Virus record (IMG/VR): IMGVR_UViG_3300012662_000009
Span: 64,001-128,000 of that record
From: a virus
Taxonomy: Duplodnaviria > Caudoviricetes
Strand: one strand, 5' to 3'
DNA: 64,000 nt
Shown here: positions 224 to 60,957 of the stretch, one piece after another
Layout: each line of letters opens with the position of its first letter
How positions within the stretch are numbered: position 1 is the first letter of the stretch
Notes under the pieces: generated by a model
Databases searched by the model: none
What the model saw: only the letters and a program-made list of their open reading frames with translations
Told to the model about the DNA's origin: nothing
Position numbers and translations under genes: made by a program

Positions 224-1006
224 ATGAAATATATAGGAGTAAGAGGTCATAGAGGTGCAGGTAAAGTGTCTATATCATATTTATTAGGCAATACGTTGAG
301 CTACTTAATACATCATAAAGGAACTATTAATGATGATTTTGATGCATTATATGATAGATTAGTTGATGATGTTATGAATGATGAAAATTGCATATATGAA
401 TCATCTCTTGATAATATCATATTTGAATCATTTTCTGGTAATATATTGTTTTTCATAGAATTATTAACAGGTATACCAAATGAATGTCTTATATCTGATT
501 ATTATAAGGATCATATATTAATCAATTTGAAAGACTTTTCTTTTAATGAGTATAAAGAAATTCCACAGGATCTTAAAATATATTCCCATGAAAAAATTTA
601 TGATGCTATTCCAAAAGATCTTCCACCAGCTAAAATAGCAGAGGATGTATATGTGCTTTTAAGAGATTTTATAATATATTTTGGTATGGATGTTATGCAA
701 AGGTTCTTCGGTGTTAATGTTTGGGTTAAGTCATTAGAAGCTGGTTATAAGATTTTACCAGAGGATTGTTATAATGATTATAAAATATACTTTGATGTCA
801 AGACCCCTGCAGAGGTTTCTTATATAAAGAATAAAGGAGGTCTTATAATAAATATAAATAGGTCTTTGAATAAAAAAGAATCCAAAGACCTAAATAAACT
901 TAGTAAAGATATTCGTATAGATTATAATATAGAAATTAAGGGATCCTTAAAAGATCTTAAAAAAAGTTTAATTGACATTTGTCAAGATATTTATCATAAA
1001 TATTAA
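224..1006 (+). CDS. Deoxynucleoside monophosphate kinase (T4 gp1-like)
   Basis: N-terminal IGVRGHRGAGK P-loop, plus G-D-MQR-FG--VW and DVK-P-E motifs. ATG 224 follows the upstream stop. Confidence 0.65.
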   Translation: MKYIGVRGHRGAGKVSISYLLGNTLSYLIHHKGTINDDFDALYDRLVDDVMNDENCIYESSLDNIIFESFSGNILFFIELLTGIPNECLISDYYKDHILINLKDFSFNEYKEIPQDLKIYSHEKIYDAIPKDLPPAKIAEDVYVLLRDFIIYFGMDVMQRFFGVNVWVKSLEAGYKILPEDCYNDYKIYFDVKTPAEVSYIKNKGGLIININRSLNKKESKDLNKLSKDIRIDYNIEIKGSLKDLKKSLIDICQDIYHKY

Positions 1007-2617: not shown

Positions 2618-4576
2618 ATGACAGCAAATAAAGTAGTTATTAGTCTTTCGGGGGGTCTTGATAGTACTTGTCTCCTATTGAAACTCCTAAGTGAAGGTAA
2701 AGAAGTTCATGCATATTCTTTTAAGTATGGCCAGAAGCATGAGATAGAACTTGCAAAAGTTAAAAAGAATATTAAATTCCTTCAGGATAAGGGATTCAAA
2801 GTCACTCATCAAGTCATTGACCTTACAGATGTCTTTTCAGATTCAGCATCATCTCTTCATCAAGGAGGTGAAGCAATACCTCATGGAGATTATCGTGAGG
2901 AGTCTATGAAGAGTACCGTTGTAGAAAATCGTAATGTAATTTTTGGATCTATTATATACAGTAAAGCTCTTTCATGGGCTAATAAGACTAACAGTAACGT
3001 CTTGATTACTTTAGGGTTACATGCTGGAGATCATTGTTTTACTGGTGATACAAAGATTATTACACCAGATGGATATAAAACTATTAATGACATTAAATCT
3101 GGTGACCCTATCTTTTCTTTTAATCCTAATACTCTCAAAATAGAAGTAGATAAGTGCATAGATATTATTGAAAAGGGGGTTAATAATGAAATTTTCAATA
3201 TTAATACAACAACAGGATTACTAAGGGTTACAGGAGAACATAAAGTATATGTTGTTTCTTATGGGGAATTAGATAGAAGTGGATATTCTAAAAATATTCA
3301 GGAGAAATCTGCAAAGGAACTTAAAATAGGAGACATTCTATTATCTACAAGTACACTACCCAGAAATATTGATCATAAAGTTAAAAATATTAATGTATTT
3401 AGTCCTATTAAAGATTTTATTAATAAAAATATTAATGGATATAACGTTGATATTGAAAATGGGGAGATTATCATTTATAATCCTAATGGTAAAACACTTA
3501 AACCTTGCAAAGAGGAGATGGATGCTAAATCTTTATTGAATCTAATGGCTTGGTATATTACGGAAGGAATGACTTCAAAGCAATATGAAAAGAACAATAA
3601 AGCTTCTCGATTCCTTAGTAGTTTTACTCAATCGGTTTATAAAAATTTAGAGAATTGTGAATCTATTAATGAAGATTTAAATAATCTTAATATAAATATT
3701 TCAGTATCTAAATCTAATAAACTGATTGATAATCTTCCTAAAGAATATACATATCAATTTACGGGGGCTATATCAGCGCTGATGCAAACATGTGGAAATG
3801 GATCTTCAAATAAGATAATTCCTAATTGGATTATGGAGTTTCTCAAGGAGAATAAAGAATATATATATGAATTTATAAATACTATGGTGTCTGGAGATGG
3901 ATATTATGATAAAATATCAGGTATGTATACATATTCTTCAAAATCAAAACAACTAATTGAAGATCTTACTTATCTTATTAAGTCTATTGGATTTTATGTT
4001 AAATATTCACAGAAAAAAAATATTTACATAATTCAATTCGGGAATAATACTCGTAAGCAAGGGCTTATAAGGTTTGGTGATGCTGCAATGACAAAAATTA
4101 CAGACATTACTATATCTCATGATGAAGAGAAAGTATATGATATAACAGTTGAAAAAAATCATAATTTCTTTGCAGGGGAATTTGGTAATGTACTAATATC
4201 CAATTCAATTTACCCGGATTGTCGTCCCGAATCTCAACAAGCAGCTGAGCATCTCTTTAAGATTTCCAATTGGGGATCTGAAAAAGTTGATTATATAGCA
4301 CCTTTTATAAATATCGATAAGATGCATGTGCTAGAAGAGGGTGTGAATGCTATGAACGATCTTAAATTTACTCAAGAAGAAATTATGGAGGTGCTTAAAA
4401 ACACTCATACATGTTATGATCCAGATTCTGAAGGAAGATCTTGTGCTAAATGCGGATCGTGTGTCGAACGCGAAGAGTCTTTCGCGTATGTAGGGTTTAT
4501 GGATCCTATAGAGTACCAAGATCCTGAATATGCAAAGAAAAAATATGAGGAGTTTTATAAGAAGTATCATGAATAA
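2618..4576 (+). CDS. queC: 7-cyano-7-deazaguanine synthase QueC containing an intein
   Basis: SLSGGLDST, YGQKH-IE, VENRN, HAGDH|...|SIYPDCRPE and TCY-P....CAKCGSC-ER zinc motif. Confidence 0.95.
   Translation: MTANKVVISLSGGLDSTCLLLKLLSEGKEVHAYSFKYGQKHEIELAKVKKNIKFLQDKGFKVTHQVIDLTDVFSDSASSLHQGGEAIPHGDYREESMKSTVVENRNVIFGSIIYSKALSWANKTNSNVLITLGLHAGDHCFTGDTKIITPDGYKTINDIKSGDPIFSFNPNTLKIEVDKCIDIIEKGVNNEIFNINTTTGLLRVTGEHKVYVVSYGELDRSGYSKNIQEKSAKELKIGDILLSTSTLPRNIDHKVKNINVFSPIKDFINKNINGYNVDIENGEIIIYNPNGKTLKPCKEEMDAKSLLNLMAWYITEGMTSKQYEKNNKASRFLSSFTQSVYKNLENCESINEDLNNLNINISVSKSNKLIDNLPKEYTYQFTGAISALMQTCGNGSSNKIIPNWIMEFLKENKEYIYEFINTMVSGDGYYDKISGMYTYSSKSKQLIEDLTYLIKSIGFYVKYSQKKNIYIIQFGNNTRKQGLIRFGDAAMTKITDITISHDEEKVYDITVEKNHNFFAGEFGNVLISNSIYPDCRPESQQAAEHLFKISNWGSEKVDYIAPFINIDKMHVLEEGVNAMNDLKFTQEEIMEVLKNTHTCYDPDSEGRSCAKCGSCVEREESFAYVGFMDPIEYQDPEYAKKKYEEFYKKYHE
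3035..4204 (+). mobile_element. Intein (390 aa) with LAGLIDADG-type endonuclease domain inside queC
   Basis: Starts CFTGDT, block B VTGEH, endonuclease motifs AWYITEG and MVSGDG, ends VYDITVEKNHNF...ISN followed by Ser+1. Removal restores AGDH-SIYPDCR. Confidence 0.92.
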
Positions 4577-58287: not shown

Positions 58288-58587
58288 ATGAGAAAGACTG
58301 AAGTTCGTGAAAAGACATTGCAATGTATTAATAGTATGTTTAAGGATTCTCAAATAGAAAATGAAACGAGATTTATAGAGGATCTTAATATGTCTTTGAA
58401 AGATATGATAGTACTTGGTGATTCCTTGGAAGAATCACTGGAGATAAAGCTTTCTTGTGATGACCTTAAAGAAATGCTTGAGGGTTCTGTAGAGGATATG
58501 GTTGATTTTATATATGATTTTTTAAAGCCTTTTACATTGCTGAATGAAAAGCGTGGTTATAGTTATCTTAAGAATATCAAAGAATGA
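58288..58587 (+). CDS. Acyl-carrier-protein-like protein
   Basis: ETRFIEDLNMSLKDMIVL-DSLEE-LEIKL...SVEDMVDFI follows the ACP pattern. Confidence 0.6.
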   Translation: MRKTEVREKTLQCINSMFKDSQIENETRFIEDLNMSLKDMIVLGDSLEESLEIKLSCDDLKEMLEGSVEDMVDFIYDFLKPFTLLNEKRGYSYLKNIKE

Positions 58588-59057
58588 TATTAGCAGCTCT
58601 TATATTATTCCTTATATATAATCTTTATTATATCTTTTCTAAAGGCATTCCAGAAAATCTTAGCTCGACTTATTATGACCTTGGATGGTTCTTCCCTGTT
58701 ACTATAGGGATCTGCGGGGTTCTTACTATGATCACTTGGCTGGGTGCCTTAGAAGGTTCTCTTTGGCAATTTACAGGTTTTTTATGTCCTACTGCAATAT
58801 TCTTTATGTGCGCTGCACCAGATTTTAAGAAATTTGGATTGATATATAAAGTACATTCCATGGGTTCTTATATAGGAGCGCTTATAGCAATTCTTTCTAT
58901 AATCTTTATATTTAATTCTTGGCAAGTACTTTTATTAGTATTATTGGGGATAATTTTAATGGTACTGGGCTCGAAGACTTGGAAGAGGTGTTATATATAT
59001 TGGATAGAACTCTGGATTTTCTTTTCGATTTTTGTTGTGCTCCTGTTAAAGATTTGA
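58584..59057 (+). CDS. Multi-pass membrane protein
   Basis: Five to six hydrophobic segments. Confidence 0.65.
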   Translation: MILAALILFLIYNLYYIFSKGIPENLSSTYYDLGWFFPVTIGICGVLTMITWLGALEGSLWQFTGFLCPTAIFFMCAAPDFKKFGLIYKVHSMGSYIGALIAILSIIFIFNSWQVLLLVLLGIILMVLGSKTWKRCYIYWIELWIFFSIFVVLLLKI

Positions 59058-59107
59058 TGATGATTTATTATATATAAATGTAAGAGAGATTGATGAATCT
59101 TAACTAA

Positions 59108-59182
59108 GGTCCTTTAGCTCAGTTGGTTGAGAGCAGTAGACTCATAATCTAAAGGTCGTAGGTTCAAGCCCTACAAGGACCA
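59108..59182 (+). tRNA. tRNA with CAT anticodon, probably Ile2 (lysidine type) rather than Met
   Basis: GGTCCTT/AAGGACC acceptor, CT-CAT-AA loop and TTCAAG T-loop. C4-G69 and C5-G68 pairs as in Ile2 tRNAs. Confidence 0.85.
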
Positions 59183-59248
59183 CTTAAAGAGTTCTTTGAC
59201 ATTGTTGTTGAAAAGCCACCATGATGGAATGGTAGACATGGCAGACTT

Positions 59249-59909
59249 TGTTCAAAAATCAAACTATGGTATATGAAAACTATAAAGTATACGGGCCTTA
59301 TTTAAATAAAAAAGATAATAGATTGAGATGTAATTTAGTCTTTAAAAATAAGATGAAAATAATTTCTTATCCAAAATATTTAATGGAGGTTTATTTAGAT
59401 AGATATCTGGATAAAGATGAAACTGTAGATCATATTGATGGAAATCCTTTAAATAATGATATAAATAATTTACGCATTCTTAAAAGAAAAATTCATTGTT
59501 ATAATGATGCTTATCGTAACAAAGATTTAAAAGTAAAATGTAGAATGTGTAGGAAAGAATTTATTGTGAAGGGATCCAGATTAAATGATAGAAACAGACA
59601 TAATTCTGGTTATTTTTGTTCTAAACAATGCACAGGAAAATATGGTGCATTAATTCAGAATGGAGAAATAAAAAAAGAATATAAGCCAAAAATAACCTCA
59701 GATAAATATCAGGTCAGGAGTGCACCCGAAGAAATTCGAGATGTAGAAGCGGGCTAATTCGGTGAATGACATAGGCCTTATAAATTATGTAGAACGCCGA
59801 GCTAAGTTGAATATGAATTATTCATAAATGTGTAGAGACTATATACCCGCCTCCTAAGTTCTATATGAATATGGAGAAGACATAGTCCAAGTGCTTGAAA
59901 AAGCATATG
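59249..59909 (+). mobile_element. Group I intron (661 nt) inserted after U34
   Basis: U before the 5' splice site and terminal G at 59909. P3 GCGGG/CCCGC (59749/59846), P7 GACTA/TAGTC (59837/59883), P8 CTCC/GGAG, P9 TGCTT-GAAA-AAGCA, and P/Q elements AATTCGGTGAA and ACGCCGAGC. Confidence 0.9.
59266..59757 (+). CDS. Intron-encoded HNH homing endonuclease
   Basis: VDHIDGNPLNNDINNL HNH motif and C-terminal CRMC...FCS--C zinc finger. Confidence 0.85.
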   Translation: MVYENYKVYGPYLNKKDNRLRCNLVFKNKMKIISYPKYLMEVYLDRYLDKDETVDHIDGNPLNNDINNLRILKRKIHCYNDAYRNKDLKVKCRMCRKEFIVKGSRLNDRNRHNSGYFCSKQCTGKYGALIQNGEIKKEYKPKITSDKYQVRSAPEEIRDVEAG

Positions 59910-59970
59910 AAAATCTGCTGAGCAGGAATGCTCGTGTGAGTTCGACTCTCACTGGTGGTACTATAAAATA

Positions 59971-60148
59971 GGTTATATAGTTTAATGGAAACAGAATAGA
60001 CTTTGATAAAAGAGAAAAGCAATTCTAATGCTGTTAGAAATTATAAGTTTCTCCATTAGATAACCTTTTCGCAAAGATAATTCTGAAATGCTCCTGATTT
60101 ATCAAACTTTTAGCAGGAGAAATACAAGTTTAAATCTTGTTATAATCA
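59971..60148 (+). ncRNA. tRNA-shaped RNA with ~100-nt hairpin insert in the D-loop and an enlarged anticodon loop
   Basis: GGTTATA/TATAATC-A acceptor, TAGTTTAATGG D-arm start, CTCCTG/CAGGAG stem and ACAAG-TTTAAAT-CTTGT T-arm. Confidence 0.55.
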
Positions 60149-60157
60149 CAAAATAAA

Positions 60158-60258
60158 GACCACAGGTGCGCAACTGGATGGTCAACGTAACTCAATAACA
60201 CTTTAGGCTGTTATTTCTTAATCGTAGGTAAGAGTATGGTGGTAACGAGCAGTTCCAC
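60158..60258 (+). ncRNA. Unassigned structured RNA motif, copy A
   Basis: Hairpin, AACGTAA, CTCAATA stem, TCTTA-ATCGTAGG-TAAGA, 3' hairpin. Same architecture as 60518-60660. Confidence 0.55.
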
Positions 60259-60262
60259 TGAT

Positions 60263-60334
60263 GGTTCTTTAGCTCAATGGTAGAGCAATTGACTGTTAAT
60301 CAATAGGTTATAGGTTCGAGCCCTATAAGAACCG
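60263..60334 (+). tRNA. tRNA-Asn(GTT)
   Basis: GGTTCTT/AAGAACC-G acceptor, ATTGA-CT-GTT-AA-TCAAT and TTCGAG T-loop. Confidence 0.92.
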
Positions 60335-60343
60335 CGGATATAA

Positions 60344-60429
60344 GGAGGAGAAGCAGAATGGATTCATGCACCAATCTTCTAAATTGGCATCTGTAATAGA
60401 TGTTGTGGGTTCGACTCCCACCTCCTTCA
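60344..60429 (+). tRNA. tRNA with TCT anticodon (Arg) and a class II long variable arm
   Basis: GGAGGAG/CTCCTTC-A acceptor, CCAAT-CT-TCT-AA-ATTGG, V-arm CATCT-GTAAT-AGATG and GTGGG-TTCGACT-CCCAC. Confidence 0.8.
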
Positions 60430-60435
60430 CAAAAC

Positions 60436-60507
60436 GCTCCTATAGTATAATGGTTATTACACCTCACTTGTAATGAGGTTATATTGGTTCGATTCCGATT
60501 AGGAGCT
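60436..60507 (+). tRNA. tRNA-Thr(TGT)
   Basis: GCTCCTA/TAGGAGC acceptor and CCTCA-CT-TGT-AA-TGAGG. Confidence 0.92.
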
Positions 60508-60517
60508 CAGGAAAAAA

Positions 60518-60660
60518 GTTCATGGTTGGATCCACCTGGAACAACGTAATACTCAATAGGCCCACTGAGAGGGAAAACTCGAGAAGAACCTCCCATGCAC
60601 ACTTGATTGGTCTGAATCGTAGGTCGGATGGTATAGCTGCACATGCCAGTAATAATGTGC
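60518..60660 (+). ncRNA. Unassigned structured RNA motif, copy B
   Basis: Hairpin, AACGTAA, CTCAATA, TCTGA-ATCGTAGG-TCGGA, GCACAT/ATGTGC hairpin. Lies immediately before the array terminator. Confidence 0.55.
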
Positions 60661-60665
60661 TTGAC

Positions 60666-60702
60666 AAAAAATCCTCTGAAAGAAATTTCGGAGGATTTTT
60701 TG
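60666..60702 (+). terminator. Terminator of the tRNA array
   Basis: AAAAAATCCTCTGAAA-GAAA-TTTCGGAGGATTTTTT. Confidence 0.8.
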
Positions 60703-60709
60703 TGTCCTA

Positions 60710-60749
60710 TACTAAATTTTTTAAAACCATTTGTTATATCAATACATAA
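60710..60749 (+). promoter_or_regulatory. Bipartite promoter-like motif, copy 7
   Basis: TACTAAA-N13-TTTGTTATATCAATACATAA. Confidence 0.65.
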
Positions 60750-60786
60750 AAGAATATATAACTAACGCAGTAAAACCAACAAAGAT

Positions 60787-60957
60787 ATGAAAAAGTTGAT
60801 AATAACAATCGCAATATTAATAGTCCTTTGTAGCACTATAGGTCTTTCTTTTATATGGAAATCTGCACCAGACGTATGTATTCTTGGTAGCTGCATATCT
60901 ATTCTATGTTCTTACTGGTTTTACACCGCTGCTATTGATGCCTCACATGGAGAATAA
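60787..60957 (+). CDS. Small membrane protein (56 aa)
   Basis: MKKLIITIAILIVLC..., two hydrophobic segments. Below the ORF-track cutoff. Confidence 0.5.
   Translation: MKKLIITIAILIVLCSTIGLSFIWKSAPDVCILGSCISILCSYWFYTAAIDASHGE

Follow-up and report, generated by a model that had tools for sequence, protein, structure and literature searches.

In phage T4, eight transfer RNAs (tRNAs) and the species I and species II RNAs are all derived from a single primary transcript, whose end lies just beyond species I (PMC2330249). Encoded inside the phage tRNA cluster, species I (rnaC) and species II (rnaD) are small RNAs of 139 and 119 nucleotides (nt), respectively, with an unexplained function. ROOL and GOLLD RNAs are also phage-encoded, are often found near tRNA islands and form RNA-only multimers via evolutionarily conserved kissing loops (bioRxiv 10.1101/2024.12.08.627333). 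The theta ribozymes of gut phages are located just downstream of a phage tRNA and have been proposed to process the tRNA 3' trailer (PMC10879173). The present analysis concerns two small RNA genes, termed copy 1 (c1) and copy 2 (c2), located in the tRNA array of an uncultured phage known from the IMG/VR virus record IMGVR_UViG_3300012662_000009 (158.6 kb, 97% complete). The stretch analysed, hereafter "the window", comprises the 64,000 nt from base 64,001 to base 128,000 of this record, and positions are counted from its first base. The two genes are paralogous members of one small structured RNA family, and the probability that they represent a real, selected structured RNA is estimated at roughly 95%. 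Their extents are as follows:

60153-60262, + strand: c1, comprising the leader AUAAAG, P1, J1/2, P2, P3, J3/4 and P4 (delimited by the R1 model, the alignment and RNAalifold)
60513-60665, + strand: c2, comprising the leader AAAAAG, P1, J1/2, P2a/P2b, P3, J3/4, P4 and the tail UUGAC (delimited by the R2 model and the alignment)

Both copies, ~105-110 nt long for c1 and ~150 nt for c2 (whose boundaries span ~153 nt), follow the same order of elements: a RAAAG leader, the hairpin P1, the invariant junction CAACGUAA, P2, P3 with the loop AWCGUAGG, a short junction and the hairpin P4. They have in common the leader, P1, CAACGUAA, the AAU/AUU base of P2, an identical P3 loop and the terminal hairpin. 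The pattern CAACGTAA-N0-4-CTCAATA occurs exactly twice in the window, against 0.02 occurrences expected from shuffles, and AATCGTAGGT is found downstream of both. These motifs of 15-17 nt and 10 nt are thus present twice each, in conserved order and, within the window, only at c1 and c2. The covariance model of c1 (R1), run over 142 kb, returns the c2 copies as the next-best matches after c1 (E-values of 0.03-0.2). The covariance model of c2 (R2) did not recover c1, because P2 and P4 are too divergent between the copies; a MAFFT alignment of c1 with c2 was poor and was not used. Additional copies were sought in the phage's own genome and none was found. A first-pass annotation of the window had already pointed to two spacers sharing one order of elements, and all the elements it listed are in place; its boundaries, 60158-60258 and 60518-60660, are better drawn as given above.

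Orthologues are found in a small set of relatives. In a large protein collection, homologues of the open reading frame (ORF) directly upstream (58584-59057) were found at 94% protein identity in L044/L045 and at 73-75% in L047, and in both of these the array is present with both copies. A pattern scan of metagenome DNA yielded one true new member, L065, with both copies, and one chance match, L064. The family, as known so far, is made of four distinct genomes of one narrow phage clade. The contigs originate from the data sets ERZ26858441, SRR29834397, SRR13434657 and ERZ1026780. Scans of IMG/VR with a three-motif pattern and with a c1 pattern gave 0 matches, and a scan of the same collection with a 17-mer from c2 gave four chance matches, none with model support. 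The IMG/VR relatives of ORF 58584-59057 (31-32% identity) have no tRNAs nearby, and a protein scan of JGI metagenomes found nothing. Relatives identified through NrdD (best-segment identity of 48-66%) carry tRNA arrays at other places in their genomes, without motif or model match; among named phages, the closest by NrdD (59%) is Thomasclavelia phage TR-TP2, in which R2 finds no match. Where homologues of the downstream 97-residue protein occur (~45-65% identity), tRNAs are present and the c1/c2 RNAs are absent. In two genomes in which this protein is ~50% identical, L053 (5829-5990) and L056 (5888-5975), a different spacer, ~70-110 nt long, lies between tRNA-Leu(UAA) and a terminator. Both spacers contain AAACGGAG...GGCG.GAC...GCUGUC, have no significant R1 or R2 match and may represent another small RNA at the same position.

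The structure of c1 comprises the following elements:

60158-60183, + strand: P1, GACCA/UGGUC with an inner CAG/CUG; apical loop GUGCGCAA with the palindrome UGCGCA (60167-60172)
60184-60193, + strand: J1/2, AACGUAACUC, invariant in all four genomes, of which CAACGUAA is common with c2
60194-60215, + strand: P2, 7 base pairs (bp), AAUAACA/UGUUAUU, with the invariant 8-nt loop CUUUAGGC (60201-60208)
60216-60233, + strand: P3, 5 bp, UCUUA/UAAGA, with the loop AUCGUAGG (60221-60228), adjoining P2 without linker
60234-60259, + strand: J3/4, GUAU, followed by P4, GGUGG/CCACU, with the conserved loop UAACGAGCAGUU and a possible inner AAC/GUU stem with loop GAGCA

The R1 model scores 135.6 bits on c1 of the window and 118-133 bits in L044, L065 and L047. 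The four-genome c1 alignment (A5) was evaluated over four helix groups, namely P1 (5 bp plus 3 inner bp), P2 (7 bp), P3 (5 bp) and P4 (5 bp plus a possible 3-bp extension). Of these 28 pairs, 15 are changed on both sides, and 96.4% of the cells are paired; when the structure is slid by 1-3 columns, pairing falls to 29.5-51.4%, and all of 500 shuffles fall short of the values observed. Within P1, the covarying pairs are 9-28, 10-27, 11-24 and 13-22 (A5 numbering). P2 has four of its seven pairs changed on both sides while remaining 100% paired, its L047 version being CUUAUGA/UCAUAAG with an unchanged loop. Double changes also affect four of the five P3 pairs and three P4 pairs, the putative inner AAC/GUU stem of P4 being invariant. 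RNAalifold, used unguided, returns the same c1 fold, with 14 of its 27 predicted pairs compensated. Variation is concentrated in the stems: 32 of 56 paired columns vary, versus 10 of 52 unpaired columns, seven of which belong to the P1 apical loop. J1/2 (CAACGUAA...), L2 (CUUUAGGC), L3 (AWCGUAGG), the GUAU junction and L4 are invariant or nearly so across the four genomes.

The structure of c2 is longer, with a two-part P2:

60518-60542, + strand: P1, GUUC/GAAC with GGU/ACC; apical loop UGGAUCC with the palindrome GGAUCC (60528-60533)
60543-60552, + strand: J1/2, AACGUAAUAC, invariant
60553-60610, + strand: P2, formed by P2a, UCAAU/AUUGG (60553-60557 with 60606-60610), and P2b, UGAGAGG/CCUCCCA (60566-60572 with 60589-60595), whose loop holds the palindrome CUCGAG (60578-60583)
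60611-60628, + strand: P3, UCUGA/UCGGA, with the loop AUCGUAGG (AACGUAGG in L047); three of its five pairs double-changed
60639-60660, + strand: P4, GCACAU/AUGUGC, with the loop GCCAGUAAUA; two pairs double-changed

The R2 model scores 169-187 bits in all four genomes. On the c2 alignment (A6), modelled with helices P1, P2a, P2b, P3 and P4, nine of 34 pairs are changed on both sides, including one in P2a and two in P2b. Pairing reaches 97.1% and falls to 28.8-44.1% when the structure is slid by 1-3 columns. An alternative central fold of c2 proposed by RNAalifold was rejected, as it passes over the covarying P3. A candidate closing helix (Px), between AUAC of J1/2 and GUAU at 60631-60634, is 100% paired; with a single one-sided change and no counterpart in c1, it is weakly supported.

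Candidate contacts between loops and junctions were considered as well. The ACG of J1/2 and the CGT of L3, which the first-pass annotation had suggested could pair, are invariant bases in the four genomes. A pairing of L3 with the downstream UAUGGU in c1 was rejected, its geometry being implausible and the pairing being absent in c2. Within c2, J3/4 UGG might pair with CCA of L4, with no counterpart in c1.

The four hairpins drawn in the first-pass annotation are therefore real: the orthologues in L044/L045, L065 and L047 keep them by compensatory changes, and the unguided c1 fold agrees with them. The covariation it had claimed between the two copies holds for P3, which has one true double change, and for no other helix within the genome; the strong evidence comes from the orthologues. 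Its stem of variable length corresponds to a P2 stem in each copy, the c2 version consisting of the two helices P2a and P2b. It had also taken CTCAATA to open this stem; in c1, AATA does open P2, while the CTC and the first A belong to the junction. Its more general view, that of a functional RNA with conserved loops on compensated stems, is borne out by the homologues and the covariation found in the four genomes. Pairs of the G-U type fix the strand (42-63 and 87-108 in c1; 41-98 and 101-114 in c2), since they would be C-A on the opposite strand, and assign the RNA to the + strand. The ORFs overlapping c2 are not conserved: L044 and L065 lack their ATG, and the lengths of the indels are not divisible by three, which argues that c2 is not coding.

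Three apical loops, those of P1 in c1, P1 in c2 and P2b in c2, contain self-complementary hexamers, and self-complementarity is kept through multi-base changes:

c1 P1 loop: UGCGCA in most genomes, UCGCGA in L047, GGCGCA (imperfect) in L065
c2 P1 loop: GGAUCC in the window, L044 and L065, GGUACC in L047
c2 P2b loop: CUCGAG in three genomes, ACGUACGU in L065

No other palindromic hexamers are present in c1 or c2, and the window has about one G+C-rich palindromic hexamer per 470 nt. The predicted gain upon homodimerization, in every genome, is -12.5 to -14.1 kcal/mol for P1 of c1, -14.6 to -16.6 kcal/mol for P1 of c2 and -11.7 to -14.6 kcal/mol for P2b of c2, versus -2.2 to -7.0 kcal/mol for the other five hairpins. 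Since a single hairpin loop does not allow a hexamer to pair with itself, the conserved self-complementarity points to intermolecular pairing. Self-association of c1 and c2 by kissing loops, as modelled here, is put forward tentatively and is judged somewhat doubtful.

Several points weigh against these conclusions. The single-sequence folding energy of the two copies is no better than that of shuffles (z-scores of -0.43 and +0.38). The family is found in four distinct genomes only, three of them mutually close, so that the covariation derives from few independent events. The palindromic-loop reading is post hoc, the c1 loop of L065 (GGCGCA) is imperfect, and the dimer energies are in silico only. 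Finally, the 3' end of c1 is uncertain, owing to extra hairpins that follow c1 in L047 and L065 and that the window lacks. In L047, this is a 58-nt element (3253-3310) with the inner hairpin loop UAGGGUU, and in L065 (~909-942, minus strand) a hairpin of ~32 nt, GAGAUCUUA.../...UAAGGUCUC.

Comparison with catalogued RNAs yields no relative. At gathering thresholds, Rfam 15 reports only tRNAs over the window. At E<=10 over the 1.9 kb from 58900 to 60800, it gives nothing credible on c1 or on the body of c2, the weak matches at 60574-60758 being centred on the terminator. A match to a known Rfam family, which the first-pass annotation had said would remove the novelty of these RNAs, was thus not obtained. 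An HDV-like (hepatitis delta virus-like) or theta ribozyme was rejected, with no HDV-family match at E<=10 and supported helices that form four consecutive local hairpins, not a nested double pseudoknot. Hammerhead, twister, pistol and hatchet ribozymes were likewise rejected, with no match at E<=10; neither copy has a three-way junction surrounded by a CUGAUGA...GAAA core. Neither copy is a tRNA or tRNA-like RNA: ARAGORN, even when run with introns, at relaxed thresholds and in mitochondrial mode, makes no call at 60153-60262 or 60513-60665, RF00005 does not match, and no cloverleaf, acceptor stem or T loop is present. For Y RNA (YrlA), RF02553 has no match, and a search of the 158.6 kb record for the TROVE/Ro60 domain (PF05731) was negative, with positive controls; unlike the Y RNA that partners Ro60, c1 and c2 lack a long terminal stem joining their 5' and 3' ends. 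ROOL and GOLLD (RF03087, RF01998) have no Rfam match to c1 and c2, whose sizes are ~110 and 153 nt. Homology to T4 rnaC or rnaD was rejected as well, since R1, run unfiltered on T4 68000-75000, reaches at best 7.8 bits, with no match overlapping either gene. Possible likenesses to the 3' end of 16S ribosomal RNA and to the sarcin-ricin loop were dropped.

The genetic setting of both copies is a single array that contains the only tRNA genes of the record:

59108-60508, + strand: tRNA array, in the order tRNA-Met, intron-split tRNA-Leu(UAA), tRNA-like RNA, c1, tRNA-Asn, tRNA-Arg(UCU), tRNA-Thr, followed by c2
60666-60701, + strand: terminator-like hairpin of ~12 bp with a GAAA loop, then a U-run, directly 3' of c2 (read from the sequence)

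Both RNAs are encoded on the + strand, c1 as an internal spacer of the array and c2 between the last tRNA gene (tRNA-Thr) and the terminator-like hairpin. In the window, each P1 begins ~9 nt past the 3' end of a tRNA or tRNA-like gene, and c1 stops 3 nt upstream of tRNA-Asn. A hairpin with a U-run occupies the same site as the terminator-like hairpin in L044, L047 and L065, with different stem sequences in the latter two; a consensus scan for terminators did not report the hairpin at 60666-60701. ORFs lie downstream of it in all four genomes, small-protein genes starting from 60790 in the window. By NrdD, the closest named phages are Thomasclavelia phages, whose 59% identity suggests a gut phage with a low-G+C Bacillota host.

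The remaining members of the array are variable. The tRNA-Leu(UAA) gene (59215-59961) is interrupted between U34 and A35 by a 661-nt group I intron (59249-59909; Rfam group I score of 38.8 bits, under the gathering score of 50). This intron encodes an HNH homing endonuclease ORF (59248-59757; PHROG HNH, E-value 1e-19). The joined exons differ by three mismatches from the intronless 86-nt tRNA-Leu of L044; the intron is absent in L065, 215 nt long in L047 and present in the distant relative L056. The tRNA-like RNA (59971-60149) has an acceptor stem (GGUUAUA/UAUAAUC), a D arm and a T arm (ACAAG/CUUGU), with ~100 nt of additional sequence in place of the anticodon arm, and ARAGORN reports it at relaxed thresholds only, as a "tRNA-Gln with a 90-nt intron". 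Its tRNA-type T arm and acceptor end recall T4 species I RNA. It is retained in L065 with compensatory changes (T stem CAGG/CCUG; acceptor G2-C71), its L047 orthologue has an 8-bp stem and a GACG tetraloop without anticodon, and L044 shows a clean deletion. The tRNA-Arg(UCU) gene (60344-60430) has a long class II-like variable arm and measures 87 nt (ARAGORN), versus an ordinary 73-nt form in L065 and a mere 3' remnant between tRNA-Asn and tRNA-Thr in L047. Between tRNA-Leu and c1, L047 also carries an element (3029-3136) closed by a 9-bp stem, AUACCUAUA/UAUAGGUAU. It starts with UAUAUAGUUUAA, like the 5' part of the window tRNA-like RNA (59970-60063), a resemblance that suggests a rearrangement of tRNA-like modules within the array.

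Functionally, the chances that c1 and c2 are released as stable trans-acting RNAs are judged about even. Both would be co-transcribed with the tRNAs of the array. When CCA is not encoded, tRNA 3' ends arise via RNase Z-type cleavage after the discriminator base; as the tRNA genes of the window array do not encode CCA, a 3' maturation of this type is inferred. The RNase Z cut would fall behind the preceding tRNA or tRNA-like gene, ~9 nt ahead of P1, whereas the RNase P cut at the 5' end of tRNA-Asn would set the 3' boundary of c1 and the intrinsic terminator would set the 3' end of c2. The freed RNAs would then act in trans as stable scaffolds, whose stems would need pairing only and whose near-invariant junctions and loops would be the working surfaces for a partner. 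The combination of invariant loops and freely covarying stems indicates that loops and junctions contact something specific, be it through a tertiary fold, a second RNA copy, or a host or phage factor. Via the palindromic P1 loops of both copies and the P2b loop of c2, like RNAs could join by loop-loop kissing, and c2, with two self-complementary loops, could form chains or rings. A bolder version of this model, rated unlikely, would make c1 and c2 miniature self-assembling RNAs, a small counterpart, released from a phage tRNA transcript, of the ROOL/GOLLD RNA-only assemblies, displaying invariant loops as a trap for a host factor, for example an enzyme that acts on tRNAs.

Among the alternatives to release and action in trans, the one that survives best, albeit improbable, is that of cis-acting elements of the operon. 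The RNAs would be folding or processing spacers protecting the precursor, or c2 and the terminator would together govern read-through into the small-protein genes that start from 60790, in the manner of an attenuator or a riboswitch-like leader. This accounts for the fact that c2 abuts the terminator-like hairpin, with ORFs beyond, in four genomes. Furthermore, the 5' strand of P2b in c2 (60566-60572; AGAGG, GGAGG in L065) and that of the terminator (60670-60697; CCUCU, CCUCC in L065) are complementary, with one in-step change, which may reflect antiterminator-like pairing or a coincidence. However, c1 has the same core and no terminator after it, and the would-be antiterminator strand is ~95 nt upstream, within a local hairpin that would form first. 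Near-invariant loops of 8-12 nt also exceed the needs of a passive spacer, and no known riboswitch family of Rfam matches.

Action in trans is also to be weighed against self-cleavage, which the first-pass annotation had raised as one of two possibilities and for which the odds are poor. Here c1 and c2 would be ribozymes that cleave the polycistronic tRNA transcript and could, for instance, remove the 3' trailer of the preceding tRNA. Such trimming has been proposed for theta ribozymes, which show that gut phages can carry ribozymes next to tRNAs (PMC10879173). The start of P1 ~9 nt past a tRNA or tRNA-like 3' end in the window would suit such a role, and a catalytic core could be built from the invariant junctions and loops. 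The idea of an array-processing ribozyme nevertheless finds no support: no self-cleaving class of Rfam matches at E<=10 in the 1.9 kb searched, and the covariation-backed helices are four local hairpins, without nested pseudoknot or hammerhead-type junction. Moreover, c1 is not always beside a tRNA 3' end, since it follows a non-tRNA element in L047 and the tRNA-like gene is deleted in L044, and the self-complementary loops are left unexplained.

An equally poor candidate is a decoy, in which anticodon stem-loop mimics would occupy a host tRNA-targeting nuclease or tRNA-modifying enzyme. The P3 loop, A-U-CGU-A-G-G, resembles the tRNA-Thr(CGU) type and the P2 loop, C-U-U-UAG-G-C, the tRNA-Leu(UAG) type. 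Both loops are invariant and each looks like a 7-nt anticodon loop plus one base, a likeness drawn from general knowledge of anticodon-loop conventions; the 5-bp stem of P3 has the length of an anticodon arm, and the RNAs are embedded among phage tRNAs. The loops, however, measure 8 nt and not 7, the equivalent of the P2 loop is replaced by a long helix in c2, and neither the palindromic loops nor the invariant J1/2 is explained. As for functionless, decayed tRNA-derived duplicates or chance similarity, the array is clearly in flux, relatives having tRNA genes that are deleted, split by introns or degenerate, but the lack of cloverleaf, acceptor stem and T loop, the negative ARAGORN and Rfam tRNA searches, and above all stems that change in compensation while loops stay invariant, a pattern contrary to neutral decay, effectively refute this explanation and leave it a negligible chance.

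Taken as structured RNAs of a phage tRNA cluster, c1 and c2 are most likely functional analogues, and not homologues, of the T4 species I and II RNAs. This relation, too, had been raised in the first-pass annotation; it stands for position, as the T4 array also ends with two stable RNAs before a terminator, and for analogy only, homology to rnaC and rnaD being unsupported. As in T4, both RNAs lie within the tRNA cluster, and the last stable-RNA gene, here c2, is followed by a terminator. In T4, however, the two RNAs are adjacent, whereas three tRNAs separate c1 from c2; and rnaC ends in a tRNA-like T arm and acceptor, which c1 and c2 do not possess. With theta ribozymes, the likeness is the place beside phage tRNA genes, and the difference is that the helices of c1 and c2 are local hairpins. 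In Escherichia coli, the 3'ETS-leuZ small RNA sponge (Lalaouna et al. 2015) is reportedly a tRNA spacer freed by tRNA processing that acts in trans. Likewise, c2 occupies an external transcribed spacer, from the last tRNA to the terminator, and c1 an internal one. The E. coli tRNA spacers, in contrast to the elaborate, covarying multi-hairpin c1 and c2, are short and offer a linear pairing site with Hfq.

The likeness to ROOL and GOLLD lies in the apical loops, which stay self-complementary while changing, multimers being a prediction for c1 and c2. Those RNAs are roughly 500-800 nt or more in length and multi-domain, versus 105-150 nt for c1 and c2. The value of the present family is limited for now; its known members come from four related uncultured phage genomes only. 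What is new is an RNA family absent from the catalogues searched, and what is of a known kind is the class it joins, that of unexplained stable structured RNAs in phage tRNA clusters. Within this class, c1 and c2 provide a compact case of 105-150 nt, with a clear secondary structure, sharply bounded conserved surfaces and a testable prediction of loop-loop self-association, and their small size opens the old question of the role of tRNA-cluster RNAs to direct tests.

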